Positions 34,342 through 54,425 are shown, counted from the first letter of the stretch. The stretch: DNA of 64,000 bases from Candidatus Latescibacterota bacterium (GCA_965248355.1 OZ252098.1:1280001-1344000); one strand, 5' to 3'. Notes: generated by a model from the sequence alone, not told the origin. A program made the numbers and translations.

Positions 34342-36246
34342 ATGATCCCCGGCCTGCGCCGCGTCGTCGCCTTGGCCATGTTCCCGGCAGCGGTGGCCAC
34401 AGGTGAGGCGGCCCTTGGGCCGACCATCCAGGACGAGCTGAAGAACTCCTTCTTCCCCATCGTCCGGTCCATCAACTCCTATTACATGTACGAGGTCTCC
34501 CCGGACACCCTCATGAGGGCCGCTCTGCGGGGGATCTTCCAGGCCCTCGACCCGTCCTCGGAGTTCGCCATCAGCGGCTCCGAGGAGGACTGGCAGAAGA
34601 ACTTCTCCACCTTCGAGCGGGCCGTACGCGTGGTCGACAAGAAGGCCTTCTACGCCGTGGGCCCCGACACGCTGATCCGCTTCGGGATCAAGGGCCTGAT
34701 GTCGGTCCTCGATCCGGACACGGTGTTCATGGAGAAGCTGAGCCTGGCCAACTTCCACATCAACACGCGCGGGGAGTACGGCGGGCTCGGCTTCCGCATC
34801 CAGGTCGTCCACCCCGACAGCGCCATCGCCGTATGGTCGCTGCTTCACGAGGATACGCCGGCGGCCCGGGCGGGCGTGAAGTCGGGGGACCTGATCGTCG
34901 CCATCGACGGCCAGTCGACGCGCACCATGGACGCCAGCCAGGCCGCCACCCTCATGCGCGGCACCGTGGACACCGACGTGACCCTGACCCTGCGCCGCGC
35001 CGGGGTGGAGGGCCCCTTCGACATCACCGTCACGCGTGAGGTCGTGCACATCAACTCCGTGCCCTGCCACGTGATGTTTCCCGACTCCACGGGCTACATC
35101 AAGCTCACCGGCTTCCAGCACAAGTCCAGCCAGGAGGTGCGCGCGGCCCTGGCCGACCTGCTCGACCAGGGCATGCAGCGGCTGATCTTCGACCTGCGCA
35201 GCAACGGCGGCGGCTACCTGACCGAGGCGGTGCAGGTGGCCGACCTGTTCCTGCCGCCCAACCGCCTCGTGGTCTACACCGCCGGCCGCGCCTTCCAGGA
35301 TACGACGAGGTACGTCACCACCGAGGAGGCCATGTTCGGCGAGGGCCCCCTCATGATCCTCGTCGACGGCGCCTCGGCGAGCGCCTCCGAGATCGTCTCC
35401 GGTGCCATTCAGGACTGGGACCGGGGCCTCGTCCTGGGAACCCCGACGGTCGGCAAGGGATCGGTTCAGCAGCCGGTTGGCATCGGCGAGCACGCCGAGC
35501 TCAAGCTGACCATGGCCGCCTACTTCATCCCCAGCGGCCGCTCCATCGACAAGCGCATGCGCAAGGACTCCACGCTCGTGGCCATGGCCGACGGGGAGTA
35601 CCGCACCTTGACCCTCGGGCGGCAGGTGCGGGGCGCCGGCGGCATCACCCCCGACATCGAGATGGAGCGGCGGCGGTCTTCCCGGCTGTACGCGCAGCTC
35701 TCCGGCTGGGGACGGAGGGGCACCCCGTTCTTCAACAACAGCCGGTTCTTCCGTTTCGCCCGGCAATACCCCGTTCAGCATCCGGAGCTCGCCCCCGACT
35801 TCGTGGCCGACGAGGGCACCATCGAGGCTTTCCGGGCCTTCGTCAACGCCGACGGCTTTCAGTACATGAGCGACCTGGAGACGAAGCTCGGGCAGTTGCG
35901 CGAGGAGGTGGACGACGAGGGGGACCACGCCATGGAGGCCATGGACCCCTCTCTCAAGCAGGTCGAGGCGGAGATCGACCAGATCGAGGAATACCACTGG
36001 AGGGACAACGCCGAGCTGCTCACCTGGAAGCTGACCTTCGACATCCGTGAGAAGGCCTTCGGGATCGAGCAGGCCTACGCCTACGACGTCACCGTCGACC
36101 CGCAGATCCAGCGGGCCCGGGAGATCCTCGGATCCGAGGTCGAGTACCAGGCCTGGTTCAAACGACCGGAGATCGGAGGCGCGCCGGCCATCGCATCCGC
36201 CACCGATACCGCCGCCGTCGAGGCCGACGGGCTGGTGCGCCATTGA
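34342..36246 (+). CDS. S41 family carboxy-terminal processing protease (CtpA/Prc-like)
   Basis: GEYGGLG PDZ region, DLRSNGGG, catalytic SASASEIV and GKGSVQ, GGITPD. Start uncertain. Confidence 0.92.
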   Translation: MIPGLRRVVALAMFPAAVATGEAALGPTIQDELKNSFFPIVRSINSYYMYEVSPDTLMRAALRGIFQALDPSSEFAISGSEEDWQKNFSTFERAVRVVDKKAFYAVGPDTLIRFGIKGLMSVLDPDTVFMEKLSLANFHINTRGEYGGLGFRIQVVHPDSAIAVWSLLHEDTPAARAGVKSGDLIVAIDGQSTRTMDASQAATLMRGTVDTDVTLTLRRAGVEGPFDITVTREVVHINSVPCHVMFPDSTGYIKLTGFQHKSSQEVRAALADLLDQGMQRLIFDLRSNGGGYLTEAVQVADLFLPPNRLVVYTAGRAFQDTTRYVTTEEAMFGEGPLMILVDGASASASEIVSGAIQDWDRGLVLGTPTVGKGSVQQPVGIGEHAELKLTMAAYFIPSGRSIDKRMRKDSTLVAMADGEYRTLTLGRQVRGAGGITPDIEMERRRSSRLYAQLSGWGRRGTPFFNNSRFFRFARQYPVQHPELAPDFVADEGTIEAFRAFVNADGFQYMSDLETKLGQLREEVDDEGDHAMEAMDPSLKQVEAEIDQIEEYHWRDNAELLTWKLTFDIREKAFGIEQAYAYDVTVDPQIQRAREILGSEVEYQAWFKRPEIGGAPAIASATDTAAVEADGLVRH

Positions 36247-36281
36247 GGGTTCGAAAAGGGAGGCCGGCGGGGACTGAGGGC

Positions 36282-37196
36282 ATGTCCGACTCAGGCAGCC
36301 GGCGCCGCCTGCCGGCCTGGTTGAAGGCGAAGGCGCCGGGCAGCCCGGGATACCTGAGGCTGAAGCGCCTGGTCAAGGGGCTGGACCTGAACACGGTCTG
36401 CGAGAGCGCCCACTGCCCCAACATCGGCGAGTGCTGGTCCGCCGGGACCGCCACCTTCATGATCCTCGGAGACGTGTGCACGCGCAGTTGCGGGTTCTGC
36501 GCCATCAGGACCGGCCGCCCCACCCACCTGGACGAGGAGGAGCCCGAACGGGTGGCCGAGGCGATTGCGCGGCTGCACCTGCGCCACGCCGTCATCACCT
36601 CCGTCAACCGGGACGAGCTCCCCGACGGCGGCGCGTCGATCTTCGCCCGCACCATCCGGGCGGTCCACGAGCGCTGCCGGCATACCACGGTGGAGGTGCT
36701 GATCCCCGACTTCCAGGGCAACTGGGAGGCCCTGGCCGAGGTCCTGGACGCCGGGCCCGAGATCCTGAACCACAACCTCGAGACCGTGCCGCGGCTCTAC
36801 CGCCGCATGCGGCCCCAGGCGCGCTACGAGCGCTCCCTGGAGCTGCTCGACCGCGCCCGGACCCTGGCGCCGGCGCCGACCAAGTCGGGCATGATGCTGG
36901 GCGCCGGCGAGACCCGGCAGGAGGTCGAGCGATCGATCGGGGACCTGGCCGCCGTGGGCTGCAGCATCCTGACCCTGGGTCAATACCTGTCGCCCTCGGC
37001 GCAACACGTGCCGGTCCACCGCTTCCTGCCTCCCGGGGAGTTCGAGGAACTCGGCGAGTTCGCGCGCGCCGTCGGCTTCGGCCACGTCGAGTCGGGCCCG
37101 CTGGTGCGCAGCTCCTACCACGCCGAGCGCCAGGTCGACGACCTGACCGCGGCCGGCGGGGACCCTTCCACCGCAATCGCGAGAGGAGGTTCATGA
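36282..37196 (+). CDS. lipA: Lipoyl synthase
   Basis: CESAHCPNIGEC auxiliary-cluster motif, CTRSCGFC radical-SAM motif, HNLETV, PLVRSSY. Confidence 0.97.
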   Translation: MSDSGSRRRLPAWLKAKAPGSPGYLRLKRLVKGLDLNTVCESAHCPNIGECWSAGTATFMILGDVCTRSCGFCAIRTGRPTHLDEEEPERVAEAIARLHLRHAVITSVNRDELPDGGASIFARTIRAVHERCRHTTVEVLIPDFQGNWEALAEVLDAGPEILNHNLETVPRLYRRMRPQARYERSLELLDRARTLAPAPTKSGMMLGAGETRQEVERSIGDLAAVGCSILTLGQYLSPSAQHVPVHRFLPPGEFEELGEFARAVGFGHVESGPLVRSSYHAERQVDDLTAAGGDPSTAIARGGS

Positions 37197-38200
37197 ACCT
37201 CGACAAGGATTCCCTGGCGGGGTACCTGCAGCGGAAGAAGTTGATCGTCGAGGACGAGAGCGTCCTCGACGTGCGTCCGGTCGGGGACGGGCTCAAGAAC
37301 CGGGTATGGGTGGTGGTCACCTCCGAGCGGCGGCTGCTGGTCAAGCAAGCCCATTGGAGGGTGCAGATGAAGATGCGCTGGTGGACGGACCGCAGGCGGC
37401 TCTTCGCCGAGAAGCGCTGCATGGAGACACTGGCCAACATCCTGCCCCCCCACGTGATCCCCGAGCCCCTGCTGGAAGACCGCACGAACTTCGTTCTGGT
37501 CACCACGGCTCCGCCCCGCGATGCGGTGGTGTGGACCGAGGAGCTGGACCTGGGACGCATCGATCTGCAGGTCGCCTCCCAGGCCGGGAACCTGCTGGCC
37601 TCCGTGCACAGCCAGACGCGCGAAATGCCCGAGCTGAAAACGATGTTCGAGGAGACCAAAGCCTTCGAGCAGCTCCGCGTGGAGCCCCTCTACGAGTACG
37701 TGGCCGCCGCCTTCCCCGAGATCCGGAGCGCCGTCGAGTCGCAGGCCCGGGATCTGATGGAGACCCGGCTCTGCCTCGTCCTCGGGGATCTGCGGCCCTG
37801 CAACGTCCTCATCAACAAGGGCCAGCTCTATCTCGTCGACTTCGCCACCGCCCACTTCGGGCAGCCCTCCTTCGATCTGGCCTTCTATGCCGGCGACATG
37901 TGCCTGAAGGCGATGCTCAACCACCCGCAGAAGGCCGCCTACCTCGAGGCGATCAACGTGTTCTGGGGCGCCTACTTCAAAGCCGCCGAATACGAGGGGT
38001 CGGCGGAGGTCGGGAGATCGGCGGTCCGGCACTTCGGTTGCCTGCTGCTGGCCCAGGTCTGCGGCCGGCGGCCGGTCCATGAGGGCGACGAGGCCTTTCG
38101 AGACCTCGCCTTCCGCATCTCCCGGAACCTCCTGTCAACCGAGCAGGAAAAAACCGAGGACATCACCGAATCCATCAATCGAACGCTGATCGATGGATGA
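37193..38200 (+). CDS. APH/choline-kinase-like phosphotransferase (MtnK-like)
   Basis: GDGLKN.V, LLVKQA, FEQLRVEP, GDLRPCN, LVDF, FDLAF; GGAGG RBS; ATGA overlap with lipA. Confidence 0.75.
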   Translation: MNLDKDSLAGYLQRKKLIVEDESVLDVRPVGDGLKNRVWVVVTSERRLLVKQAHWRVQMKMRWWTDRRRLFAEKRCMETLANILPPHVIPEPLLEDRTNFVLVTTAPPRDAVVWTEELDLGRIDLQVASQAGNLLASVHSQTREMPELKTMFEETKAFEQLRVEPLYEYVAAAFPEIRSAVESQARDLMETRLCLVLGDLRPCNVLINKGQLYLVDFATAHFGQPSFDLAFYAGDMCLKAMLNHPQKAAYLEAINVFWGAYFKAAEYEGSAEVGRSAVRHFGCLLLAQVCGRRPVHEGDEAFRDLAFRISRNLLSTEQEKTEDITESINRTLIDG

Positions 38201-39738
38201 GGCACGCACCTGCCGCCATCCTGCTCGCCTTGTGGGGCTGCGCCCCCGGCCCCGCCCCCGAGCCCGGTGACCCCCGGTCCGGCGTGCCGGCGCCGGCGCG
38301 CGAGTTCCGCGCCGTATGGGTGGCCACCGTCGACAACATCGACTGGCCCTCCCGGCCAGGCCTGACCGCGGGGCGCCAACGGCTCGAGGCCCGAGCCATC
38401 CTGGACCGGAGCCGTCAGCTCGGGCTCAACGCCGTCATCCTCCAGGTCCGCCCTCACTGCGACGCCTTCTACGCGTCGTCCCTGGAGCCCTGGTCCTATT
38501 ACCTGAGCGGCCGCCAGGGAGAGCCGCCGAAACCCGCTTACGACCCCCTTGAATTCTGGGTGGAAGAGGCCCACGCCCGCGGACTCGAGCTGCACGCCTG
38601 GCTCAACCCCTACCGGGCCCAACACCCGAGGAACCTGGGGGGCCTCTCGCCGCAGTCCATCGCCAGCCGGCGGCCCGACCTCGTGCGCACCCTCGGCGAC
38701 AGCGGCTACCTGTGGCTCGATCCCGGCTCCGAGGAAGTGCGCGATTTCACCCTGTCCGTCTTTCTCGACGTGGCCCGGCGATACGACGTGGACGGCGTGC
38801 ACCTGGACGACTACTTCTACCCGTACCCCTCCTACAGCGACGGCGCCGATTTCCCGGACGAGCCCACGTGGCAGGCGTACCGGGAGGGAGGCGGCCGCCT
38901 CGAGCGGGAGGACTGGCGGCGGGAGAACGTCGACCGCTTCGTGGAGACCCTCCACGCCAGCCTGCGCAGCCTGTCGCGGCCGATCAAGCTCGGCATCAGC
39001 CCCTTCGGGATCTGGCGCCCGGGGCATCCGCCCTCGATCGACGCCGGGCTCGATCAGTACGGCAAGCTCTTCGCGGACCCCCGGCGCTGGCTGCACGAGG
39101 GCTGGCTCGACTACTGCGCCCCACAGCTCTACTGGCCCATCTCCAAGGTCTCCCAGAGCTTTCCGGTCCTGCTCGCCTGGTGGGCCCGCAACAACCCGCA
39201 CGGGCGCCACGTGTGGCCGGGCCTGTACACCTCCTCCGTGCGCTCACGCGGCTGGCCGGCGCGCGAGATCGTCGACCAGATCATGATCACCCGCGGCCTG
39301 CTGCAGCCGGTGCCCGGACACATCCACTTCAGCGCCCGGGCCGTTCTCGACTCCGCCCGCGTCGGGTCCGGCGGGGACCGGCTGACGGCGATCCTGGCCA
39401 AGGGTCCGTACCGGGGTCCGGCCCTGGCGCCGGCCACGCCCTGGCTGGACGACCTGCCTCCCGAGGGACCACGGGTGACGGCTCGCCTTCAGGACCGCGA
39501 TCTCCTGCTGGACTGGTCCCGGCCGGCCGGAGAACGGCCCTTCCTCTACGTGGTCTACACCAAGGGCCGCGACAGCGGATGGCGGCACACGATCGTGCCG
39601 GCCTCCCGGACGGAGCTGCGTCTGCCCCTCGGGGGGGCCGGGGGGAAGGGCGAGGTGGAGGCCGTGGCCGTCACCGCCGTGGACCGCATGGGCAACGAGA
39701 GCGATGTACGCGTGCACCCCCTCGAGAGTCTGCTCTGA
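38197..39738 (+). CDS. Glycoside hydrolase GHL10 (YddW/DigH-like) lipoprotein
   Basis: Lipobox LWGC; EFRAVWVATV.NIDWPS, ELHAWLNPYR, DGVHLDDYFYPY, GISPFGIW, PQLYW. Confidence 0.9.
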   Translation: MRHAPAAILLALWGCAPGPAPEPGDPRSGVPAPAREFRAVWVATVDNIDWPSRPGLTAGRQRLEARAILDRSRQLGLNAVILQVRPHCDAFYASSLEPWSYYLSGRQGEPPKPAYDPLEFWVEEAHARGLELHAWLNPYRAQHPRNLGGLSPQSIASRRPDLVRTLGDSGYLWLDPGSEEVRDFTLSVFLDVARRYDVDGVHLDDYFYPYPSYSDGADFPDEPTWQAYREGGGRLEREDWRRENVDRFVETLHASLRSLSRPIKLGISPFGIWRPGHPPSIDAGLDQYGKLFADPRRWLHEGWLDYCAPQLYWPISKVSQSFPVLLAWWARNNPHGRHVWPGLYTSSVRSRGWPAREIVDQIMITRGLLQPVPGHIHFSARAVLDSARVGSGGDRLTAILAKGPYRGPALAPATPWLDDLPPEGPRVTARLQDRDLLLDWSRPAGERPFLYVVYTKGRDSGWRHTIVPASRTELRLPLGGAGGKGEVEAVAVTAVDRMGNESDVRVHPLESLL

Positions 39739-39793
39739 CGGCGGGTACCGCCGTTGCCCCAGGCCCGGGCAACGGACATATTTCCAATCCATC

Positions 39794-40450
39794 ATGCCCG
39801 CCATCGCCGATATCGGAACTCGTGTGGAGCTGGTGCCCATGGACGGGCACTGTCACGACATCACCCTGGCCCTGTACCGCCAGCCCACCACGAGCGGCCC
39901 CGCCTTCCTGGTGCACACCTACAGCTCCCGCGGCGAGGCGGAGCGGCGCCTCGAGGATGTCCGTTCCCTCATGACGACCCTGGGCGACCTGCGGCCATCG
40001 GTGGAGGCGGCCGGCCTGCTGGCCTTTCCCTGCGGGGATGAGCACGGCCTGGCCGTCCGCCGCCTCTTCCTCGAGGCGTGCAAGATCGGCTCGCCCGACG
40101 ATGCGACCCCTCCTTCCCTGTCCACGGTGGACCGCAAGTCGGGCCTGACCATCGTCGCCGAGCCTCTGGGAGAGGGCCAGTACCGGGTGCGGGCGGTGGG
40201 AGAGGCCGACGAGGCCGAGCGCTCCCGCCGGGTCGGCGTGATCGTCAACGGCCTCCTGAAGCTGGGAGAGATGCGCCCCGTGGAAGGGGCCGGGAACTGC
40301 GTCGGCTTCGACTGCGGCCATCCCCACGACGAGCTCGTGGGTCTGCTCCTGGTGCGCGCGCCGAACGTGCGCGCCATCGTCCGCGAACAGCAAGCGCTGG
40401 CCGGCCGCGGTGTGCTGGCGGCGCCGAGCCAGCAGGGGAATCAGTCATGA
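39794..40450 (+). CDS. Conserved hypothetical protein, first gene of the corrinoid operon
   Basis: 218-aa ORF with host-like codon pattern; ATGA overlap with the next gene; two FxCGxxH motifs. Confidence 0.7.
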   Translation: MPAIADIGTRVELVPMDGHCHDITLALYRQPTTSGPAFLVHTYSSRGEAERRLEDVRSLMTTLGDLRPSVEAAGLLAFPCGDEHGLAVRRLFLEACKIGSPDDATPPSLSTVDRKSGLTIVAEPLGEGQYRVRAVGEADEAERSRRVGVIVNGLLKLGEMRPVEGAGNCVGFDCGHPHDELVGLLLVRAPNVRAIVREQQALAGRGVLAAPSQQGNQS

Positions 40451-41478
40451 CCACCTCCGCCATGAACGGCAGGCAACGGGTCCTCGCCGCCCTGCAGCGA
40501 CAGCCCGTGGACCGCACGCCGGTGTGCAATCCCACCTCGGTGGCGACGGTGGAGCTGATGGACCTGGTGGACGCGCCCTTCCCCGCCGCCAACCGCGAGC
40601 CCGAACTCATGGCCCGACTGGCGGCCACGGGCTACACCGAGCTCGGCTTCGACAGCATCATGCCCGTGTTCTCCATCATCCAGGAGTCCTCGGCCCTGGG
40701 CTGCAAGATCCAGTGGGAGCAGAAGGACAACTGGCCCACGGTGAAGATGCGGGAACCGATCTGGACCTCCGCCGACGACATCCGGATCCCTCCCGGCCTG
40801 CTCACGCACCCGGACACGAAGTGCGTCCTCGACGCCCTCACCCTGCTGCGCCGGGAGTACGGCGACGAGGCCGCCATCATCGGCAAGACCATGGGCCCCT
40901 GGTCTCTCGCCTACCACGGCCTCGGCGTCGAGCCCTTCCTGCTCATGTCCCTGGACGATCCGGACGAGACCAAGAGGATCCTCGACGTCCTGAAGGAGGT
41001 CACCGTCGACTTCGGCATCGCCCAGGTCGAGGCCGGCGCCGACGCCCTGACCCTGCCCGACCACGCCACCGGCGACCTCGTGAGCGGCTCGTACTACGAG
41101 CGCTACCTGCGGGATCTGCACATCGAGTTCGCCGAGCGCATCCCCTGCCCCATCATCCTGCACATCTGCGGCCGCACCGTGGACCGCATGGAGTTCATCG
41201 CCCAGACCGGGATGGCCGCCTTCCACTACGACTCGAAGAACAAGCCCCGGGAGTCGAGGGAGATCGTGGGCGAGCGCATCAGTCTCGTGGGCAACATCAA
41301 CAACCCCGAGACCCTCTTCGCCCGGCAGCCCGAAGACGTGGCCGCCGAGGTGGTGAGAAACCTGGAGGCCGGGGTGCAGCTCGTCGGCCCGGAGTGCGCC
41401 ATCCCCCTGCAGACCTCCATCGAGAACCTGCGCGCCATCCCCGAGGCCGTACGCAAGTGGCACCTGCAGGCGAACTGA
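40447..41478 (+). CDS. MtaA/CmuA family Zn-dependent corrinoid methyltransferase (UroD fold)
   Basis: RVLAAL...VDRTPV, GPWSLA, AGADAL, Zn motif ILHICG, LVGNI, C-terminal GPECAIP...ENL. Confidence 0.88.
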   Translation: MTTSAMNGRQRVLAALQRQPVDRTPVCNPTSVATVELMDLVDAPFPAANREPELMARLAATGYTELGFDSIMPVFSIIQESSALGCKIQWEQKDNWPTVKMREPIWTSADDIRIPPGLLTHPDTKCVLDALTLLRREYGDEAAIIGKTMGPWSLAYHGLGVEPFLLMSLDDPDETKRILDVLKEVTVDFGIAQVEAGADALTLPDHATGDLVSGSYYERYLRDLHIEFAERIPCPIILHICGRTVDRMEFIAQTGMAAFHYDSKNKPRESREIVGERISLVGNINNPETLFARQPEDVAAEVVRNLEAGVQLVGPECAIPLQTSIENLRAIPEAVRKWHLQAN

Positions 41479-42228
41479 TTGCCCGGCCTGTCCGACATCC
41501 GCAACGAGTCCCTTCGCTTCGAGATCGAGGAGTACCTGGAGAAGCCGGAGGAGATCGCGCGCTTCGTGGAGGTCTTCTCCGCCGCCCGGCCGATCCACCA
41601 GGACATGGCGGCGGCCCTGATCGAGGGCGACCATCACACCGTCGACGCCCTGGCCGTCCAGGCCCTGGAGGAGGGCATCGAGGCGCTGGAGGTGATGGAC
41701 GACGGACTCATCTCGGGCATGGGGATCGTGGGCATCAAGTTCCGGGAGAACTTCATCTTCGTGCCCGAGGTCCTCGCCTGCGCCCGGGCCATGAAGGCGG
41801 GCATGGCCCACATCGAGCCGATCCTGTCGGCCTCGGGCGTCGAGAAGGCCGGCAAGGTGGTCATGGGGACGGTGAAGGGCGACCTCCACGACATCGGCAA
41901 GAACCTTTGCATCATGATGCTGAACGGCGCCGGCTTCGACGTCATCGATCTCGGCGTCGACACCTCGGAGGACGAGTTCATCGACGCCGTGGAAGAGTCG
42001 GGGGCCCGGCTGCTGGGGATGTCGGCGCTGCTGACGACGACCATGCCCAACATGGGCAAGACCATCGAGGCCTTCATCGACGCCGACCTGCGCGACGAGG
42101 TGCAGATCATGGTCGGCGGCGCCCCGGTGACCCAGGAGTTCGCCGAGGACATGGGCGCCGACGGCTACGGCAAGGACGCCCTGGCCTGCGTCGAACTCGC
42201 CAAACAACTGACGGGCAAACCCACCTGA
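41479..42228 (+). CDS. Stand-alone corrinoid (B12-binding) protein, MtaC/MetH-cap-like
   Basis: Cap domain GM..VG..F...IFVPEV; GDLHDIGKN (DxHxxG), SALLTTT, MVGGAPVT, GADGY; TTG start. Confidence 0.93.
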   Translation: MPGLSDIRNESLRFEIEEYLEKPEEIARFVEVFSAARPIHQDMAAALIEGDHHTVDALAVQALEEGIEALEVMDDGLISGMGIVGIKFRENFIFVPEVLACARAMKAGMAHIEPILSASGVEKAGKVVMGTVKGDLHDIGKNLCIMMLNGAGFDVIDLGVDTSEDEFIDAVEESGARLLGMSALLTTTMPNMGKTIEAFIDADLRDEVQIMVGGAPVTQEFAEDMGADGYGKDALACVELAKQLTGKPT

Positions 42229-42572
42229 TGACCGGGATCCCGCCCGAAGAGGTGCAGAAGCGCTTCGACCGCCTCACCGAGATCTTCGGAGAGATCGTCA
42301 ACCACGCCGACGCCCAGTCCTCGTGGCGCTGCCCGTACCGCGACCGCCACGATCTGTGCACGGCCAAGTTCCACTGCAAGAACCAGACGGCCGCCCCCGC
42401 GGGGAAGAGCACCGCCGACGGCGACCTGTCCTGCTCCCACGACGGCAGCTTCGACTACCGCAGCGCCTGGGAGTCGGACCCGCGCACCGAGGAGCGCGCC
42501 CGCCGCCGCATCGAGACCATCCGCGAGCGCGCCGCCGAAGGCCGCCAGGGGCGCCGCGGCCCCGGGCGCTGA
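42228..42572 (+). CDS. Small Cys-rich hypothetical protein
   Basis: ATG overlaps the upstream TGA; 114 aa, MTGIPPEEVQKRF...RCPYRDRHDLCTAKFHCKNQ...LSCSHDG. Confidence 0.7.
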   Translation: MTGIPPEEVQKRFDRLTEIFGEIVNHADAQSSWRCPYRDRHDLCTAKFHCKNQTAAPAGKSTADGDLSCSHDGSFDYRSAWESDPRTEERARRRIETIRERAAEGRQGRRGPGR

Positions 42573-42590
42573 CGGCCGGTCCCCCCGGCC

Positions 42591-44249
42591 ATGGCCGTCG
42601 TCCGCGCGCCCGGCCTCGAGCCGCAACGGCTGAAGCCGGGGCGCACCCTCTTCGACTACGCCGACGACCTGCGGCTGCAGGTCCCCACCTCCTGCCTGCG
42701 CAACGGCTATTGCCACGAGTGCGTGGTCGAGATCCACGCGGGCCTGGAGGCCCTGCGCCCGCGCTCGCCGGCGGAGCGGTTCCTGCGCGACCCGTACCGC
42801 CTGGCCTGCCAGGCCCTTGTCGTGGGCGACGTGGACGTGGATTTCGAGCCCCTCCGCCGTTCGCCGCAGATCCTGTCCGAGACCCGCCCCCGCCGCATCG
42901 AGCCGGACCCCGTGGTCCGGCGGCGCGGCGACGAGGTCCTGTACGGCTGCGAGCCCGTCGACCGCTACCGCGGGCACCTCTACGGGCTGGCCATCGATCT
43001 CGGAACGACGACGATCGCCATGGATCTCGTCGACCTGGAGACGGGAGACTCGGTCTGCGTCACCTCCTTCGAGAACCCCCAGCGCTTCGGCGGCTCCGAC
43101 GTGATGCACCGCATCACCTACGACGGCGGCCCCCACCACGGGGAGCTGCAGAAGGCGGTGACCACCGCCCTCAACCACCACATCGCCGACATGGTCCATC
43201 GCCTGGGCTTCGTCCGCCAGGAGATCTACGAGATCACCGTGGCCGGCAACCCGACCATGCGCGACCTGCTCTTCCGCCTGGACGTGCAGCCCATCGGCAC
43301 GCGCCCCTACAAGTCGATGGTGGAGCGCGCCTTCCTCGACGGCGAGCGGTCCACCACGGCCTGCGTGGAGAAGTCGCGGCGCCTGGGCATCCGCGCCAAC
43401 ATCCACACCCGCGTCTACGGCCTGCCCCTGATCGCCAGCCAGGTGGGCGCCGACACCGCCGCCGATCTGGTCGCCTGCGACCTGCTGAGCGCCGAGGGGG
43501 ACGAGGTGAGCCTGCTGGTCGACGTGGGCACCAACACCGAGGTCGTCATCGCGGGAAGAGGGCGGATGGTGGCCGCCTCCTCGCCGGCGGGACCGGCCTT
43601 CGAGGGCGGGCTCGTGAGCTGCGGCATGCCGGGCTACGAGGGCGCCATCGATTCGGTGCGCATCGACGACGAGGGGGCCTTCGTCTGCACCACCATCGGG
43701 GACGCCGAGCCCCTGGGCCTCTGCGGCTCGGGCCTGGTGGATCTGCTCGCCGAGCTGCGGCGCACCGGCCGCATGTCGGAGAAGGGCGTCCTCGGGGACG
43801 GCCGCCGGCGCAACCCGCGGCTGCCGGTGGCGCCGGAGCAGGGCATCACCTTCTCCGCCGAGGACGCCAGCCACCTGGCCCAGGCCAAGGCGGCCAACTA
43901 CTGCGGCCAGTATCTTCTGCTGCGCGAGTTCGGCATCGATCCCGCCGATATCTCCCGGCTGTACCTGGCCGGGGGCTTCGCCAACTACGTCGACGCGGCC
44001 AACGCCGTGGCCATCGGCTTCCTGGCGCCGGTGCCGGCGGAGCGCATCGTCAAGGTCGGCAACGCCGCCCTCCAGGGCGCCCGCGAGGTGCTCCTCAGCC
44101 GCGGCCGGCGCCGGCGGCTGGAGGCGGCCGTGGCCCGCATCGAGCACGTGGAGCTGGAGACGGTGCCCGAGTTCTTCGACGCCTTCGTCGACGGCTGCAT
44201 GTTCCGGCCCATGCCCTCCCGGGTCCTGAACCGACAGGATGCCCCTTGA
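42591..44249 (+). CDS. Corrinoid reductive activator RACo/RamA-like (ASKHA ATPase with N-terminal 2Fe-2S domain, DUF4445)
   Basis: SCLRNGYCHEC...RLACQ; DLGTTT, ENPQRFGGSDV, DVGTNTE, AGPAFEG, GLCGSG, LAGGF, GNAAL. Confidence 0.92.
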   Translation: MAVVRAPGLEPQRLKPGRTLFDYADDLRLQVPTSCLRNGYCHECVVEIHAGLEALRPRSPAERFLRDPYRLACQALVVGDVDVDFEPLRRSPQILSETRPRRIEPDPVVRRRGDEVLYGCEPVDRYRGHLYGLAIDLGTTTIAMDLVDLETGDSVCVTSFENPQRFGGSDVMHRITYDGGPHHGELQKAVTTALNHHIADMVHRLGFVRQEIYEITVAGNPTMRDLLFRLDVQPIGTRPYKSMVERAFLDGERSTTACVEKSRRLGIRANIHTRVYGLPLIASQVGADTAADLVACDLLSAEGDEVSLLVDVGTNTEVVIAGRGRMVAASSPAGPAFEGGLVSCGMPGYEGAIDSVRIDDEGAFVCTTIGDAEPLGLCGSGLVDLLAELRRTGRMSEKGVLGDGRRRNPRLPVAPEQGITFSAEDASHLAQAKAANYCGQYLLLREFGIDPADISRLYLAGGFANYVDAANAVAIGFLAPVPAERIVKVGNAALQGAREVLLSRGRRRRLEAAVARIEHVELETVPEFFDAFVDGCMFRPMPSRVLNRQDAP

Positions 44250-45268
44250 AGAGCTTTTCCGAACGACTGCAAGAGCCCCGGCCCGTCCTCTTCGACGGCG
44301 GCTTCGGCACGCAGCTCTTCGCCCGCGGCGTCGAGCTGCCCAACAGCGCCCTGGCCAACGCCCATCACGCCGACACCGTGGTCGACGTACATCGAGCCTA
44401 CATCGAGGCCGGCTCGGAGATGATCGAGACGAACACCTTCGTCGCCTCCGCCCTGCACCTGGAGATGGCCCAGGCCGGCGATCTCTCCGCCGGGGAGCTG
44501 GCCAGGCTCGCCGCCGGACACGCCCGGCGGGCCGTCGAGGAGAGCGGCCGGGAGGTGTTCGTGGCCGGTTCCCTCGGACCCTCTCCCGGGGCGATCGAGG
44601 CCGACGCCGGCGACACCGACTTCGGGATCGCCGACGACAAGGTCCGGGCCGCCCACCAGGAGGTGGCCGAGGGCCTGGCCGACGCCGGCGTCGACCTGCT
44701 CCTCGTGGAGACCATGTTCTCGGCCCGGGAAGCGGCCATCGCCGTCGACGTGGCCCGGGGGTTCGGACTGCCCGTCGCCCTCTGCCTGACCTACAAGTTC
44801 ACCCAGGACCGCAGGACGAAGCAGGTCATCTACCGCACCGACTGGGGCCACTCCCCCGCCGACGCCGTGGAGATCCTCGGCTCCGGGGAGCACTCCGGCG
44901 GCGACGACCTGCTGCCCTCCATCGACCTCCTCGGCCTCAACTGCGGCGCCGAGTCCGTCCGCGAGAAGCACTCCGGCATGGCCTACGCCATCGAGGGCAC
45001 GAGGCAGACCGCCGAGGCTCTCGCCGAGCGGGGCCTGACCGGCATCCGCCTGGCCGCCTTTCCGAACGCGGGCCTGCCGAAGATGGACCGGCAGACCCGG
45101 CTGACCTACTACCTGCAGGGACCGGAGGTGATGATCGCGAGCCTCGACGAGCTCCGGCGGGCGGGCGCCTGGCTCATCGGCGGCTGCTGCGGCACCACCC
45201 CCGACCACATCCGCGCCTTCCGGGAAGGCCTCGACGGCGGGGCCGGCCCGGGAGGGTCCGATGACTGA
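44246..45268 (+). CDS. Stand-alone homocysteine S-methyltransferase domain protein (split MetH/Bmt-like)
   Basis: LFDGGFGT, ETNTF, VAGSLGP, VETM, GLNC, PNAGLP, IGGCCGTTPDHI; TTG start overlapping the upstream stop. Confidence 0.9.
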   Translation: MKSFSERLQEPRPVLFDGGFGTQLFARGVELPNSALANAHHADTVVDVHRAYIEAGSEMIETNTFVASALHLEMAQAGDLSAGELARLAAGHARRAVEESGREVFVAGSLGPSPGAIEADAGDTDFGIADDKVRAAHQEVAEGLADAGVDLLLVETMFSAREAAIAVDVARGFGLPVALCLTYKFTQDRRTKQVIYRTDWGHSPADAVEILGSGEHSGGDDLLPSIDLLGLNCGAESVREKHSGMAYAIEGTRQTAEALAERGLTGIRLAAFPNAGLPKMDRQTRLTYYLQGPEVMIASLDELRRAGAWLIGGCCGTTPDHIRAFREGLDGGAGPGGSDD

Positions 45269-45530
45269 GTACCAGATCCTCTACTGGCGGGACATCCCCG
45301 CCCAGGTCCGCGTCTTCACGAGTCGGCGCCCCCTCTCCCGGCCGCTGCCCGAGCGCTTCCAGCAGGCCATCGACCGCGCCGCCATGGCCGAGGGTCTGGC
45401 CGGCACCGACGACTACCTGGCCCAGTGGCGGTGGACGGAGAGGCGCAGCGGCGACGGGGAGCCCGAGGAGCTGCTCCATCGCCTGATCGAGGAACTGGCG
45501 GCCGCGTACGACGCCGCCAACCCGGCCTGA
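45261..45530 (+). CDS. 'Virulence factor' (Virulence_fact/CvfA-like) small domain protein
   Basis: [11 protein letters not shown]...[15 protein letters not shown]...TDDYLAQW signature. Confidence 0.8.
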
Positions 45531-45534
45531 AGCC

Positions 45535-47478
45535 GTGGCCACGACCTATCCCAAGACCTACGAGACGATCGTCGTCGGCGGCGGCCACGCCGGCACCGAG
45601 GCGGCCCTGGCGGCGGCCCGCATGGGCGCCGAGACCCTGCTGGTGACGATGAACCTCGACACCATCGGCCAGATGTCCTGCAACCCCGCCATCGGCGGCA
45701 TCGGCAAGGGCCACATGGTCAAGGAGATCGACGCCCTCGGCGGCCAGATGGGGATCAACACCGACCTGTCGGGCATCCAGTTCCGGCGCCTGAACACCCG
45801 CCGGGGCCCCGCGGTGCGCGCCACCCGGGCCCAGTGCGACAAGAAGGCCTATCAGCTCGAGTTGAAGTACGCCTGCGAAGGCCAGCCCCGCCTCGACGTG
45901 CGCCAGGGGACGATGGAGAGCCTGCTGGTGGAGGACGGCGCCGTGGGCGGCATCGGCGTCAAGGGCGGCATCGTCTACTCCGGACGCACCGTCATCCTGA
46001 CGACCGGCACCTTTCTGCGCGGCAAGATCCACGTGGGCGACTACCAGTACGCCGCGGGGCGCGCCGGGGAGAGCTCCGCCGACCGGGCCGCGGAGGGGCT
46101 CGCCCGGCTGGGGTTCCGTATCGGCCGCCTGAAGACGGGCACGCCGCCTCGCGTCAACGGCCGCACCATCGACTTCCCGGCCCTGGAGCCGCAGCCCGGG
46201 GACGAGCCGCCGCCCACCTTCTCCAGCCGCACCGAGGGCCCCGCCCTGCCCCAGGTCCCCTGCTGGATCACCTACACCCACGCCGGGACGCACCAACTGA
46301 TCCGGGACAACCTGCAGCGCTCCGCCATGTACTCGGGGCGCATCGAGGGGGTGGGACCTCGCTACTGCCCGTCCATCGAGGACAAGGTCGTGCGCTTCGC
46401 CGGCCGCGACCGCCACCAGATCTTCGTCGAGCCCGAGGGCCTGCGCACTCACGAGCACTACATCAACGGCCTCTCCATGAGCCTGCCCGAGGAGGTGCAG
46501 CTGCCCGTCCTGCGTTCCCTGCCCGGCCTGGAGCGGGCCGAGATGATGCGGCCCGCCTACGCCGTCGAGTACGACTACGCCGAGCCGACGCAGCTGCACC
46601 CCACCCTCGAGACCAAGCGCGTGGCGGGGCTGTTCTTCGCCGGCCAGATCAACGGCACCACCGGCTACGAGGAAGCCGGCGCCCAGGGGCTGATGGCCGG
46701 GATCAACGCCGTGCTGAAGGCCCGCGGCGAGGAGGCCTTCGTCCTCGACCGCTCCCAGGCCTATATCGGGGTGCTCATCGACGACCTGGTGACCAAGGGA
46801 ACGACCGAGCCCTACCGGATCTTCACCTCGCGGGCCGAGTTCCGGCTGCTGCTGCGCGAGGACAACGCCGACGAGCGGCTCATGGAACACGGGCGCCGCT
46901 TGGGCATCGTCGACGACGAAACCTGGCGGCGCTACGAGGGCAAGCGCGCCAGCATCACCGCCGAGATCGAGCGCCTGGAGTCGCAGCGCCTGCCCCTCGG
47001 GGAGGGCGTCGACGAGCTTCTTCGGGAGCGGGAGACGGCGCCGGTGCGCGAGCCTCCCCTGCTGCGGGACCTGCTCCGGCGGCCCCAGCTTCGCTATGCC
47101 GACATCGCCGCCCTGGCCCCTCCCGAGCGCCCGCTGACGCCGGAGGCGGGGGAGTGCGTGGAAGCGCACGTCAAGTACGCCGGGTACATCGACCGCCAGG
47201 CCGATGAGGTGGCGCGGCTGCGGCGCATGGAGTCCCTGCGGATCCCGGAGGACTTCGACTACGACGCGGAGGCGCGCCAGCTCTCCTCGGAGGCGCGCCA
47301 GAAGCTCGGCCGCGTGCGGCCCCGCTCCCTCGGGCAGGCGTCGCGCATCTCGGGCGTCTCCCCCGCCGACGTCTCGTCGCTGATGGTCCTCCTCAAGGCG
47401 CGGAGGCGGCCGCCGCCGGCTGCTCCCGCCCCTTCACCTTCCGCACCCGGGAGTCCCCGCTCAGCAGCCAGCGGCTGA
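45535..47478 (+). CDS. mnmG: tRNA uridine-5-carboxymethylaminomethyl modification enzyme MnmG (GidA)
   Basis: [58 protein letters not shown]. Confidence 0.97.
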
Positions 47479-48544
47479 TGGCGCCGTCGTCGTGCAGGTC
47501 GGCGGCCTCCTCGACCCAGGCCTCGTACCCGTGCTCCGCCGCCTCGATCACCGGCGGCCACCGGAAGCCGGCCAGCGGCCGGGGTGCGAGGCCGAGGCTC
47601 TCCGGCTCGGCGGCGTAGGCCAGCCCCTTCCGGGCGCGGAGCCGCTGCCGCCAGTAGATCTCCCGCAGCAGGCGGATGGCCCCGTCCTCCGGAGGCAGCT
47701 CGAACTCTTCGCCTTCGGCCCCAAGGGTCACCACCCGGTCGACGAAGCGCACGTAGCCCCACTGCTCCGGGTAGTGCATGTTGATCAGGCCCTGGGGCGA
47801 CCAGACCCAGTTGTCCTCGCCCTCGCCCGGGATCTTCACGTATCCCTCACCGTCCTCGGCGGGCTCGACGCGCCACTCCACGCGCGAGAAGTTGACCCGC
47901 CAGATGTCGCCGTCCTCGGGGGGCACGGCCGTGCGGCTCGGGCGCCGCAGCCCCTCCCAGGGAAAGGCGACCTCCACCGACCAGCCCTCGTCCACGTCCC
48001 GGGGCTGGTTGATCGTGCCGTAGACCCGGACCCCGGTGCGCAGGCCGGGCAGGTCCCAGGCGTGCACGGGCGGCCCTCCGTCGCGGTAGGGCCGCACCAG
48101 CAGCAGGTCCCACTCGGTGCCGAAGGCGTTGACCTCGTACTCGAAGTAGTTGTGGGTGTCCCAGTCGGGGTCGATGAAGACCTCGAAGTCGTTGTCGTGG
48201 AAGATGACGGCGTCGCGCTCGGTGAGGGTGGCCCAGACCTGGGGCTCCTCCAGCAAGGCGGCCACGTAGAAGCGGCCCTCGTCCCACAGCATCTTGGCCC
48301 GCGTGCGCAGGCGTGGGGGAGGCTTGAGGTCGCCCTCGATGTCGACGAAGAGCTGGGTCCAGGGGGCGTGCTGCCACGAAGGCTCGTCCAGGGACCCGTC
48401 GATTGTGAGGGCTCCGGCGGCGCGGAAGGCCGTGTACCGCTGGGGCTCGATGCCGGCCAGGTGCTCCGGATCCGGTTGCGCGGCCAGGGCCGTCGCCGTC
48501 AGCGCCTGGGCGAGGAGAACGCGTCGGAAACCACCCCTGGCCAT
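47393..48544 (-). CDS. Secreted carbohydrate-binding family 9 (CBM9/DOMON-like) protein
   Basis: Signal-peptide-like N-terminus; [50 protein letters not shown]. Confidence 0.85.
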
Positions 48545-48649
48545 CTCATCCATCTCCTGTTGCGAGGTTCGGGCGGAGCCCCGTATACTACGCCTTTTCC
48601 GCGGCCCCCCCCAACGAGGGCCGTCCACTCGATAACAAGGCAAGACCGC

Positions 48650-49297
48650 TTGCAGTTGATCCTGCTCGGGGCCCCCGGCTCCGGCAAGGGCACCCAGGCC
48701 CGCAGGCTGGAGGAGGGCTACGGGATCCTCCACATCTCCACCGGCGACATGCTGCGCGAGGCCGCGGGCGGCGGCACCGATCTCGGCGCCCTGATCGAAG
48801 ACCACCTGCGCCGCGGGCGGCTGGTCCCCGATGCCCACGTCCTGACGCTGGTGGAGGAACGTCTCGGCCGGGGGGACCTGGACCGCGGCTTCACCCTCGA
48901 CGGCTATCCCCGCACCCGCCGGCAGGTGGACGACTTCGAGAAGCTCATGGAGGCCCTCGGGCGCAACCTCGACGCCGCCCTCAACATCGACGTCCCCGAC
49001 GAGATCGTCATCGAACGCCTCTCCAGCCGGCGCATCGACCCGCAGACCGGCCGGGTCTACAACCTGGGCCTCGAAGACGACCCGCCGCCGGAGGTCGCCG
49101 GCCGCCTCTCCCAACGCAACGACGATGGTCCCCGCGTCATCCGCCAGCGCCTCGAGACCTACCACGCCGAGACCGAGGCCCTCATCGCGCACTACCGGCG
49201 CACCGGGCAGCTCATCGAGATCGACGGCGCCCGGCCCCCGTCGGAGGTCTTCGCCGCCATCCAGCAGGGGCTGGAGGCGGTCCTCCAGAGCCGCTGA
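48650..49297 (+). CDS. adk: Adenylate kinase
   Basis: LLGAPGSGKGTQA, HISTGDMLR, LDGYPRT, lid RRIDPQTGRVYN, QRNDD; TTG start assumed. Confidence 0.95.
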   Translation: MQLILLGAPGSGKGTQARRLEEGYGILHISTGDMLREAAGGGTDLGALIEDHLRRGRLVPDAHVLTLVEERLGRGDLDRGFTLDGYPRTRRQVDDFEKLMEALGRNLDAALNIDVPDEIVIERLSSRRIDPQTGRVYNLGLEDDPPPEVAGRLSQRNDDGPRVIRQRLETYHAETEALIAHYRRTGQLIEIDGARPPSEVFAAIQQGLEAVLQSR

Positions 49298-50799: not shown

Positions 50800-51699
50800 A
50801 TGACCGACAAGCTCGCGCGCGGGATCCTGCCCGCCCTGTGCACCGCCTTCGACGACAGCGGGGCGCGCCCCGACCCCGATCGCCAGCGGGTCCTGCTGCG
50901 CGCCCTCCTCGAGGCCGGCTCGCAGGGCTTCTTCGTCTGCGGCGGCACCGGCGAGGGCCGCGCCATGACGGTACCGGAGCGCAAGCAGGTGGCCGGAGTG
51001 GTGGCCCGGGAGGTCGCCGGCCAGGTGCCCCTGATCCTGCAGGTCGGCGCCTGTCCCACGGTGGAGGCCGTCGAGCTGGCCCGGCACGCAGCCGGGGTGC
51101 CGGGCATCGACGCCGTCGCCTCGGTGGCGCCCGTGGACCGCCCGAAGGACCTGGCCGCCGCCGCGGAGCACTACGCCGCCATCGGCGCCGCCACCGACCT
51201 GCCCTTCTACGTCTACTGGCTGGCCCGCGAAGCCGACGACGCGGCCACGGCGGACCGCTTCCTGGAGGCCATGGAGGGGGTGCCCCACTTCGCCGGGATC
51301 AAGTTCACCGACTACAACCTCTTCCTCTTCGGCCAGCTCATCGAGCTGACCGGGGGCCGCCTCAACGCCATCAGCGGCCCCGACGAGATGTGCCTGCCCG
51401 CCATGTGCATGGGCGCCGACGCGGCGATCGGCACGACCTACAACATCATGCCGCGGATCTACCTCGAGATGCGCCGCGCCTTCGACGCCGGCGACCTCGA
51501 CAGCGCCCGCCTCTGCCAGCGCCACGCCAACCGGGTCATCCGCATCCTCATGGAGGCCGGGGTCATGGCGGCGGTGAAGGCGATCCTCGGCTGGCGGGGC
51601 ACGTCCGCCGGCCCTCCCCGGGTGGTGGAGCCCCTCGACGGGGAGGGGGAAGAGCGGCTGCGGGGAGAGCTGGAGGGCCTGGACTTCGAGGTGGCTTGA
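50800..51699 (+). CDS. DHDPS/N-acetylneuraminate lyase family aldolase
   Basis: GILPALCTAF, CGGTGEG, Schiff-base GIKFT, SGPDE, AIGTTYN. Confidence 0.88.
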   Translation: MTDKLARGILPALCTAFDDSGARPDPDRQRVLLRALLEAGSQGFFVCGGTGEGRAMTVPERKQVAGVVAREVAGQVPLILQVGACPTVEAVELARHAAGVPGIDAVASVAPVDRPKDLAAAAEHYAAIGAATDLPFYVYWLAREADDAATADRFLEAMEGVPHFAGIKFTDYNLFLFGQLIELTGGRLNAISGPDEMCLPAMCMGADAAIGTTYNIMPRIYLEMRRAFDAGDLDSARLCQRHANRVIRILMEAGVMAAVKAILGWRGTSAGPPRVVEPLDGEGEERLRGELEGLDFEVA

Positions 51700-51909
51700 G
51701 GGGCGGCCTTTTGGGGGCGCGTTTGCTCTGGCATGAGCGCGACGCCCTCTTGGAACTTCAAGCAGGATACGGGGTGAGCCCCAAGGCAATCCTGTCTGCT
51801 CTCGCCACCCTGATGCCCCTGCAGTGGTGCTTCCGTCTGATTTGCCGCTATCGCGAAACAGAGGACTCAGCCATTCGTGAGCGATACACGCAGATCCTGG
51901 AGTTTGTGG

Positions 51910-52089
51910 ATCCGTACACGCAGCGGGATCAGGCGCTCGCCGACCTGGCGGTACTCGGCGAACACCATGGGTTGGGACAGCTCCAGATCCCTCGTCGTAG
52001 TACTCCACGTCCACGGGCATCCAATCCTCGGTGCGCACGCGCACCACCACCTTGCCCCACACCACCGGCGCTTTCGGCTTCGGTCTGAG
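51910..52089 (-). pseudogene. Internal fragment of an outer-membrane lipoprotein-sorting (LolA-like) protein gene
   Basis: PKPKAPVVWGKVVVRV...PVDVEYYDE, then a frameshift near 51989 into ELSQPMVFAEYRQVGERLIP; no start of its own. Confidence 0.6.
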
Positions 52090-52588
52090 CATGGGCCGCC
52101 CCTTCGACCCGTCCCACGCTTGCAGGCCGACGGAGATGGTCTCGGCATTGGAGGAATCGACGGAGACCGGGATGTCGGTCAGGCCCTGCACCGTCGCCAC
52201 GCGCCAGGTCATGGCCTCCTTCTGCTCTTCGAGCTTCAGCGAGATCTCATCGACCTTGAGATCGAGGGAATCGGCGCCCGCCTGTTCCTGCACGCTGAAC
52301 CATCCGTCTCAGGTAATGCATGCCCTCGGCCGGACTCTCGGTCGCCGCCCATCGCTGCCTGCACGGCGATCTTGACGTGCTTGACGCGTCCTTCCTCGAG
52401 TCCTGGGTGCCCTCCACCGCTTCCGGAATGACCAGGTGGCGCCGCTCGCCGTCGACCGAGCGGTAGCGCACCGCTTCCCGGCCGTCGCCGGTGGTCGTGA
52501 CGAGCTTGCCGCGGCGCATCACCACCCGCGTGGTGTGGATGTTCTCGCCGATGATGACGAAATCGAGATCGGGGTTGTGCAGCTTCAT
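52090..52588 (-). pseudogene. Frameshifted, truncated pterin-binding (methyltetrahydrofolate:corrinoid methyltransferase, AcsE/MetH-like) gene
   Basis: IIGENIHTTR...; EEGRVKHVKIAV; EGMHYLRRMV; QEQAGADSLDLKVDEIS...IPVSVDSSN...GRPML. These pieces lie in different frames, with shifts near 52398, 52332 and 52293. Confidence 0.75.
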
Positions 52589-52684
52589 GGCAGGTTGTTC
52601 GGTCGCTTGCGGCCGTGCCGCCCGCGCGCGGCACTCGACGGGCCGACCGGCCTATCGACATCCAAGGTGGCACAAAGAGAGAAT

Positions 52685-54175: not shown

Positions 54176-54425
54176 GGCGAAGTCTCCTTGTCCTGTGGTA
54201 GTGTCGGGTTGGAGCTGGGAATTCTGCCCTCGACCAAACGGGAGCCCGCCCGGGCACGTTGGCGTCCGGGCGGCGGAGCACCGAGATCCGGGCCGGCATC
54301 CGGGCGAGCGTTCGATTGGACCGCAAGTGTGCATCGAGGCCCTCCCCAAGCCAACGGAGTCCCGATCCAGTGCACGGCTCCGTCGGTCCCAGAGCAGTCT
54401 CGGTGAGGACCGCCGCTTGGCGGCC

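Follow-up and report, generated by a model that had tools for sequence, protein, structure and literature searches.

This study concerns a compact operon, predicted to move methyl groups by way of a corrinoid protein, in the genome of Candidatus Latescibacterota bacterium. The window, meaning the whole stretch of DNA that was analysed, is 64,000 nucleotides long (GCA_965248355.1 OZ252098.1:1280001-1344000), and the operon occupies positions 39794-45530 of its plus strand. It consists of seven co-oriented open reading frames (ORFs), g1 to g7, which mostly overlap or abut:

39794-40450, plus strand: g1, the first gene, 218 amino acids (aa), no known family
40447-41478, plus strand: g2, MtaA/CmuA-family (URO-D superfamily) zinc methyltransferase, 343 aa, ATGA overlap with g1
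41479-42228, plus strand: g3, stand-alone corrinoid (B12-binding) carrier, abutting g2
42228-42572, plus strand: g4, 4-Cys domain protein, a detached activase N-terminal domain, 1-nt overlap with g3
42591-44249, plus strand: g5, RACo/RamA-type ATP-dependent corrinoid reductive activase with a 2Fe-2S domain, 18-nt gap after g4
44246-45268, plus strand: g6, stand-alone MetH-type homocysteine-binding zinc methyltransferase module, 4-nt overlap with g5
45261-45530, plus strand: g7, 89-aa PF13769 ('Virulence_fact') protein, putative corrinoid-hub accessory, 8-nt overlap with g6

The coordinates, strand and overlapping or abutting arrangement given in an initial annotation of this DNA were borne out, and the identities that it assigned to the genes proved right in Pfam and NCBIfam hidden Markov model searches. 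The motifs are present in the translations (LHICG...PECA in g2, GDLHDIG in g3 and NCG...GGCCG in g6), and the operon is, as the annotation said, without a pterin-binding, MtaB-like or MttB-like gene.

The g2 product matched the URO-D family of Pfam (E 5e-64) and scored above the cut-offs of the joint NCBIfam model TIGR01463 mtaA_cmuA (250.1 vs 235.4 bits) and of PRK06252 (259.7 vs 244 bits). It scored below the equivalog cut-offs of MtaA (234.3 vs 400 bits) and MtbA (189.5 vs 600 bits) and below that of HemE, TIGR01464 (68.8 vs 302.95 bits). Its closest PDB structure is Methanosarcina MtaA (4ay7), which aligned over the whole length (E 1.4e-52). HxC...C is the zinc-ligand motif of MtaA/CmuA-family enzymes; these ligands of g2 stand in register with those of 4ay7 (LHICG/PECA vs VLHICG/PGCG), and among 54 sequences H239 and C317 are invariant and C241 is near-invariant. 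The mean column identity of g2 is 82%. Representatives for a g2 tree came from a search of 1.84 billion proteins, which gave 150, of which 59 shorter than 300 aa were dropped. The tree has 96 rows, made up of 82 of the 91 full-length representatives, 13 g2-family members and the HemE of the same genome as outgroup; a further 9 partial or unmatched rows were omitted (P0152, P0154, P0160, P0166, P0169, P0172, P0176, P0262 and P0267). The g2 family formed a single clade (Shimodaira-Hasegawa-like approximate likelihood ratio test, SH-aLRT, 99) nested in a 38-row clade of bacterial 'MtaA/CmuA family' proteins (SH-aLRT 99); the proteins that NCBIfam recognises as equivalogs, four of MtaA and one of MtbA, fall in other clades. 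CmuA of strain CM4, taken from plasmid pCMU01, was placed in a tree with 41 of the 82 representatives, where it formed a long branch at the root; it is 24.5% identical to g2 over 212 residues.

The g2 protein thus groups with MtaA-like proteins and not with HemE or CmuA, which agrees with the affiliation proposed initially and gives no placement with true uroporphyrinogen decarboxylases. Three more specific identities were rejected: CmuA, on the low identity, the length of 343 aa and the absence of a corrinoid domain; uroporphyrinogen decarboxylase, on the HemE score and the presence of a separate true HemE at C1:1728343; and an MtaA or MtbA equivalog, on the cut-offs and the tree position. 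No characterised relative can be placed near g2, because the sole name given to its 10 distant representatives is 'MtaA/CmuA family methyltransferase'. A plasmid collection contained no close relative, the best match being 28% identical and the matches mostly HemE. In the sister group, P0140 naturally unites in one protein an MtaA-like domain (41% identity to g2) and a corrinoid domain. Another member of the sister group, P0151 (686 aa), joins a 3-dehydroquinate synthase (AroB) domain to an MtaA-like domain that is 39% identical to g2.

The g3 product combines the Pfam domains B12-binding_2 (PF02607) and B12-binding (PF02310) and carries the DxHxxG motif. Its best NCBIfam match was of the MtgC type at 202.4 bits, below the cut-off of 370, and it shares 34% identity with the CmuA corrinoid domain. 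Apart from g3, the B12-binding domains found by Pfam in the genome belong to MetH and to one B12-radical-S-adenosylmethionine (SAM) protein. The adjoining g4 was initially described as a small 4-Cys protein. Its four cysteines are indeed conserved (C35, C44, C50 and C69), and it had no Pfam match above cut-off, but its independence did not hold up: g4 and RACo share one reading frame in 27 of the 57 loci, as they do in the Poribacteria-labelled genomes, where the joint frame is 633-652 aa long. In the window, the stop codon of g4 (TGA, 42570-42572) is in frame with the ATG of g5, 18 bases downstream; in the closest relative, L014, the two genes lie in different frames. Judged by these frames, g4 is a detached N-terminal domain of the activase, and across the family as a whole it is no stand-alone protein; the TGA marks either a split by a recent nonsense mutation or a site of read-through. 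The g5 product matched Fer2, Raco_middle and RACo_C_ter in Pfam and is the sole RACo_C_ter match in the genome. Together, g4 and g5 contain the 2Fe-2S, middle and ASKHA ATPase domains of RACo, with the 4-Cys domain of g4 lying outside the Pfam architecture.

The g6 product matched S-methyl_trans (PF02574, E 1.2e-52), and its best PDB matches were the homocysteine (Hcy) domains of MetH (E 3e-23), followed by HMT (5e-16) and BHMT (9e-13). The small g7 protein matched Virulence_fact (PF13769, E 6.5e-23), of which it is the single copy in the genome; in relatives the gene comes after the Hcy module, or after the pterin methyltransferase in loci in which no g6 was found. Among 11 longer PF13769 proteins, three are fused to DUF1638, one to Pterin_bind and one to Fer2, and these fusions tie the 'virulence factor' domain to corrinoid hubs. 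DUF1638 is described as the second B12-reactivation factor of split MetH (PMC5764234). An AlphaFold2 model of g7 had a predicted local distance difference test (pLDDT) score of 93.1; Foldseek gave no fold match for it in the PDB, and a PDB sequence search gave nothing at E<=10.

No family could be assigned to g1. Pfam and NCBIfam searches returned zero matches, and when 54 aligned homologues were searched against Pfam at E<=1 no family recurred, the commonest weak match appearing in 2 of them. The AlphaFold2 model (pLDDT 92.9) consists of two similar alpha/beta repeats. With this model, Foldseek found nothing in the PDB at E<=1e-3; a wide fold search with g1 gave at best a urea carboxylase domain (Z 7.3, 88 residues), in a Z range rated common, and a search of the ESM Atlas gave no usable match. 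In the alignment of homologues, C80, H84, C96, C174 and H178 are near-invariant and the mean column identity is 54%. The protein has 727 homologues, for which all source names given are 'hypothetical protein'. Within Latescibacterota, g1 occurs in 125 of 168 genomes (34 of the 52 high-quality ones); it is near-universal in four families of the phylum and absent from most other families.

A scan for g2 with one genome per species revealed at least 80 loci, and the counts below refer to the 80 listed. Proteins 73-84% identical to g2 were found under the labels Latescibacterota, Poribacteria, Gemmatimonadota, Acidobacteriota, Alphaproteobacteria, Spirochaetia, Planctomycetota, Verrucomicrobiota and Actinomycetes. 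By tblastn, g1 is present in 77 of the 80 loci, mostly directly upstream of g2, and g3-g4-g5 adjoin g1-g2 in 54 (the core loci). Because g1 and g3-g5 recur at these frequencies, the seven-gene arrangement is not a product of chance, and the survey of gene neighbourhoods that the initial annotation had suggested confirms that the cluster is conserved. What follows the core varies. In 24 core loci only a PF00809 pterin-binding methyltransferase was found, directly after the activase; 13 have only a PF02574 module, 5 have both, and 12 have neither in the fetched stretch. A pterin-binding methyltransferase is thus present in 29 of the 54 core loci and in 31 of all 80 loci, and an MTHFR-DUF5981 fusion in 19 of the 80. 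A divergent GntR/FCD regulator accompanies 23 loci. In three Poribacteria-labelled genomes g1-g2 stand alone, and g3, g4/g5 and an Hcy module (54-58% identical to g6) make up a separate cluster, within 19 kb of which there is no pterin gene. The g1-g2 pair is therefore the constant core of these loci, and the acceptor module varies.

Two further features of these neighbourhoods were noted. Three Planctomycetota-labelled loci carry a distant PF02574-like gene, 33-34% identical to g6, between g2 and g3 (L075:1570, L077:4258 and L081:7311); this is a second, independent joining of an Hcy-type module to the core. In 15 loci the GntR regulator and g1 are separated by a conserved ORF of about 165 aa without a Pfam family (for example L080:5557-6060), and tblastn found no match to it in the window.

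The assembly is a single contig of 5.5 Mb and is 95.7% complete. It encodes a complete five-domain MetH (1244 aa) about 140 kb upstream of the operon, a YitJ-like Hcy-methyltransferase/MTHFR fusion and two further PF02574 proteins. PF00809 is found only in MetH and in a 283-aa DHPS-sized protein, and URO-D only in g2, the one MtaA-like gene, and HemE. No MTTB (PF06253), MtaB or DUF1638 (PF07796) was found in this 95.7%-complete genome. The search for other loaders proposed in the initial annotation thus gave neither mtaB nor mttB, together with an intact metH; g1-g2 is the only visible corrinoid loader in this genome, and homocysteine is the only visible acceptor.

Downstream of the operon lie the remains of the pterin-binding gene that many relatives keep within the cluster, next to an insert:

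52084-52609, minus strand: pseudogene remnant of the cluster-type pterin-binding methylcorrinoid:tetrahydrofolate (THF) methyltransferase, found by tblastn and synteny
52685-53437, minus strand: ORF of the insert, no Pfam match
53438-54433, minus strand: ORF of the insert

By tblastn, the remnant falls into two fragments that are not in the same frame and share 57% and 75% identity with the L041 gene; it spans only about the first 170 of about 356 residues, and its Pterin_bind score of 21.8 bits is below cut-off. As for a stand-alone pterin-binding module of the MtgD kind, the genome holds only this remnant. At the syntenic place the gene is intact (about 356 aa, 83% identical to that of L041) in four of the five same-genus genomes tested (G165, G170, G171 and G172); in two of these, G172 and G170, it is found some 12 kb downstream of g1, on the other strand. 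When the DNA of the window was compared with these two genomes, it proved colinear with both from 38001 to about 51700; beyond this point the 3' half of the pterin gene is missing. An insert of 1.83 kb (52596-54425), absent from the two same-genus genomes, adjoins the broken gene; its G+C is lower than that of the window (0.659 in the 52001-54000 bin, against about 70%). Contigs of DNA run X1, a public run that may be the source sample, cross both junctions without a difference. These comparisons show that the folate branch was lost recently and in this species only. Since the gene is broken here and intact in four of five same-genus genomes, folate independence is recent and derived and not a property of the family. 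The initial annotation had proposed a folate-independent route; that such independence is inherent to the system does not agree with a pterin gene in 29 of the 54 core loci, in four of the five same-genus genomes and, as a remnant, in the window itself.

Parts of the operon are represented, at 96-99% identity to the window, in contigs assembled from two metatranscriptome libraries that belong to a single study:

38862-40725: end of the GHL10 gene through g1 into g2
41052-41760: g2 to g3
42151-42548: g3 to g4
part of g5
45035-45418: g6 to g7

This cover is compatible with transcription in a near-identical strain. With seven open frames coupled by overlaps, g1 retained across most genomes of the phylum and this RNA-library cover, the operon looks functional. 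The RNA-library contigs of X17 and X18 give no or almost no cover of 51350-53485, around the pterin remnant, which DNA run X1 covers; this was counted as no evidence. Runs X19 and X20 matched 6% of words only and were not used for habitat.

We favour, with slightly better than even confidence, the reading that the operon makes methionine from a predicted methyl donor without folate, g1-g2 loading the corrinoid and g6 accepting the methyl group. In this scheme, g3 would carry a cobamide, and g4 and g5 would form an ATP-driven RACo-type activase that reduces Co(II) to Co(I), in place of a SAM-dependent reactivation domain. With its constant partner g1, g2 would be the substrate-side enzyme that moves a methyl group between a small compound X and Co(I)-g3, where X is most likely a methyl thioether or methyl selenide. 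Acting as the Hcy part of a split methionine synthase, and together with the small g7, g6 would then transfer the methyl group from methyl-Co(III)-g3 to homocysteine. In most relatives, the pterin-binding methyltransferase, with or without MTHFR, would link the hub to folate; in this genome the normal MetH would handle folate-dependent methionine synthesis, and the net reaction left to the operon would be X-CH3 + homocysteine -> X-H + methionine. As the acceptor modules vary, g1-g2 is constant and no other loader of g3 is recognisable, loading by g1-g2 and methionine formation by g6 is the most economical explanation. We infer from these patterns that g1 and g2 work jointly, in which direction the methyl group moves and what kind of compound X is. 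MtsA and MtpA take methyl groups from thioethers (partly 10.1101/548461). This family chemistry, the conserved zinc-thiolate site and a proposal made for MtaA-like clusters (PMC10418091) together indicate a thioether or selenoether donor.

Several observations weigh against this reading. The neighbourhoods of the listed loci hold no conserved transporter or substrate-specific catabolic gene that hints at X, although the lack of a conserved transporter would fit a small diffusible compound. MtaA itself runs in the opposite direction, from methyl-Co(III) to a thiol, so g2 could be an acceptor-side enzyme. The pterin gene was lost in this species only, and the operon may be decaying instead of being adapted to a folate-free role. 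Methionine supply does not depend on the operon, because the genome has an intact MetH, the YitJ-like fusion and two more PF02574 proteins. Because 4.3% of the marker genes are missing from the assembly, a loader could have gone unassembled, and because RNA libraries can hold DNA, the contigs leave transcription unproven. None of the findings that the initial annotation had named as contrary to its proposal (an intact pterin-binding partner accounting for corrinoid methylation together with an inactive MtaA-like protein, placement of g2 with decarboxylases, or a lack of cluster conservation) was obtained.

The direction of transfer is where the nearest alternative departs from methionine formation by donor-side loading. 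If g2 worked on the acceptor side like MtaA, methyl-THF would enter through the pterin module and the methyl group would pass to a thiol or selenide, in parallel to homocysteine; in this genome such a system would be without a source and idle or decaying. The nearest relatives of g2 are methylcobamide:coenzyme M (CoM) methyltransferases, the zinc-thiolate motif is kept, and the pterin methyltransferases (31 of 80 loci) and MTHFR fusions (19 of 80) could supply methyl-THF; in this genome the loss of the pterin gene is only recent, and ClMlp2 was assayed with methylcobalamin and selenide (PMC10418091). However, the 13 loci and the Poribacteria-labelled clusters that have an Hcy module and no pterin gene in the fetched stretch need a donor-side enzyme, all seven frames of the window are open and covered by RNA-library contigs, and the divergent GntR/FCD regulator of 23 loci suits inducible catabolism better than a biosynthetic methylase. 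On this balance, an acceptor-side role is unlikely.

The donor could also still be methyl-THF, the operon being a split, RACo-activated methionine synthase whose pterin module acts in trans (the pterin domain of MetH or an unassembled gene) and in which g1-g2 is auxiliary, for example in cofactor handling. It is established that MetH can be split into three parts and be served by a RamA-like activase (PMC5764234), and the pterin module of same-genus genomes lies 12 kb away, outside the operon; but the cluster-type gene is demonstrably broken here and PF00809 is otherwise confined to MetH and the DHPS-sized protein. The literature examined offered no known example of a MetH domain that works on a foreign corrinoid protein, and conservation as extreme as that of g2 and g1 (mean column identities of 82% and 54%) speaks for a role in catalysis, which makes this arrangement very unlikely. 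The layout of the relatives, with methyltransferase, corrinoid protein, pterin methyltransferase and MTHFR, parallels the cmu pathway, and this was counted in favour of a non-sulfur donor, either a methyl halide, the substrate type of CmuA, or a methoxy compound of the kind used by URO-D-family O-demethylases. The passing of the joint MtaA/CmuA subfamily model by g2, the 34% identity of g3 to the CmuA corrinoid domain and the lack of a conserved transporter nearby, as expected for a gas, point the same way. Against it stand the distance of g2 from CmuA and the long root branch of the latter, the zinc-thiolate ligands retained in g2, and the assignment of the haloalkane enzyme CdmB and the O-demethylases to a different, zinc-free branch (PMC13222342); we give a non-sulfur donor only a slim chance.

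Under the reading that g1-g2 loads the corrinoid, the pair might even be the long-postulated aerobic cobalamin-dependent dimethylsulfide/methanethiol methyltransferase, passing the methyl group to folate or, here, to homocysteine, although this particular identity is quite unlikely. Such an enzyme was proposed in 1993 and was still without a gene in 2019 (PMC6548844).

The arrangement has counterparts in known systems. In Ruegeria pomeroyi and other roseobacters, a single corrinoid protein, MtgC, is the carrier for a glycine betaine methyltransferase of the MttB family, for MtgD, a pterin module that works in both directions, and for the Hcy module MtgE; it is thus common to a demethylase and a split methionine synthase, and a RamA-like activase maintains it in the reduced state (PMC12478193, PMC5764234). 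DUF1638 and MetF2 also accompany the Ruegeria hub. In Phaeobacter inhibens, a RamA-like DUF4445 protein reactivates B12 for split MetH (PMC5764234). The concept put forward in the initial annotation is not new; as these reports show, a hub shared by a demethylase and a split methionine synthase had already been published. As in MtgBCDE and split MetH, a stand-alone corrinoid protein, g3, would be common to a substrate-side methyltransferase and a stand-alone Hcy module, g6, and a ferredoxin-DUF4445 activase, g5, replaces the SAM reactivation domain; relatives of the operon also carry a pterin module and MTHFR, and the best match of g3 is of the MtgC type, though below cut-off. The window differs in that the substrate-side enzyme would be the MtaA-like g2 with g1 and not a member of the MttB family, for which the genome has no MTTB gene, in that DUF1638 was not found in the genome and the pterin module is a pseudogene, and in that the hosts are uncultured Latescibacterota- or Poribacteria-labelled lineages. 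The cassette belongs to the split-MetH/MtgBCDE type of corrinoid hub, with another predicted substrate-side enzyme.

The type 1 mlp clusters of Kountz and Balskus likewise contain MtaA-like proteins, a corrinoid protein and an activase and no folate enzyme; a role in methyl-sulfur or methyl-selenium metabolism and the recycling of methyl groups into methionine were proposed for them (PMC10418091). They need at least one Mlp2 and one Mlp3, and their hosts were all reported as obligate anaerobes. The window shares with them an MtaA-like protein, a corrinoid protein, a Ram/RACE-type activase and the absence of a THF methyltransferase. However, it has a single MtaA-like gene, with the PF02574 Hcy module in the second place, and g1 and g7 are absent from the type 1 description; because only one MtaA-like gene is present, the locus falls outside the type 1 definition. 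Compared with MtaA, MtbA, MtsA and MtpA of methanogens, g2 belongs to the same family and has the zinc HxC...C site, but it scores below the MtaA and MtbA equivalog cut-offs, lies in a separate bacterial clade and would be coupled to homocysteine or THF and not to CoM. CmuA/CmuB of Methylorubrum extorquens CM4 also carry out corrinoid-dependent methyl transfer in an aerobe, and CmuA has the corrinoid domain that resembles g3; CmuA is a fusion protein, however, and its methyltransferase domain is the distant relative of g2 described above. In a literature search made largely without subscription journals, no paper was found that describes the g1-g2 pair, this type of operon or its link to an Hcy module.

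The particular contribution of this window is that its folate branch has been knocked out naturally while the operon and MetH are both intact, which isolates the path from donor to homocysteine. The g1-g2 pair is among the most conserved parts of these genomes. If it loads the corrinoid from an environmental compound, it would be a new one-carbon entry point into methionine and folate metabolism in abundant uncultured bacteria, and would add to the cobalamin demand of their communities. If the donor were dimethylsulfide or methanethiol, the enzyme would represent a widespread, overlooked sink of methylated sulfur in sponge symbionts, the deep ocean and soils.

The surroundings of the operon are housekeeping genes, namely those for lipoyl synthase, a GHL10 hydrolase, MnmG, adenylate kinase and Dus. 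The G+C of the window, about 70%, accounts for crowded raw ORF lists. An Rfam scan of 36000-48000 gave zero matches at the gathering score, so no SAM or cobalamin riboswitch was detected in that region. In 38000-47600, the promoter scan found 0 promoter-like sites and the terminator scan 2 terminator-like sites, both on the minus strand and in a number not above that of shuffled sequences. Elsewhere in the genome, a homologue of ComA (PF02679, phosphosulfolactate synthase) lies at G000:C1:1428718-1429440 (L119:7665-8477, minus strand), with an archaeal-type phosphopantothenate synthetase domain, a 2-hydroxyacid dehydrogenase, an HpcH/HpaI aldolase and a pyridoxal phosphate enzyme as neighbours on the minus strand. 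It was rejected as evidence of CoM synthesis, since the family also matches Bacillus and Corynebacterium controls and the neighbours resemble sulfolactate/cysteate metabolism. The longest frame of the adenylate kinase gene (47492-49297) has 601 aa, with the ADK domain confined to residues 391-572; the gene probably starts far downstream of the start of this frame, the other explanation being an unusual N-terminal extension.

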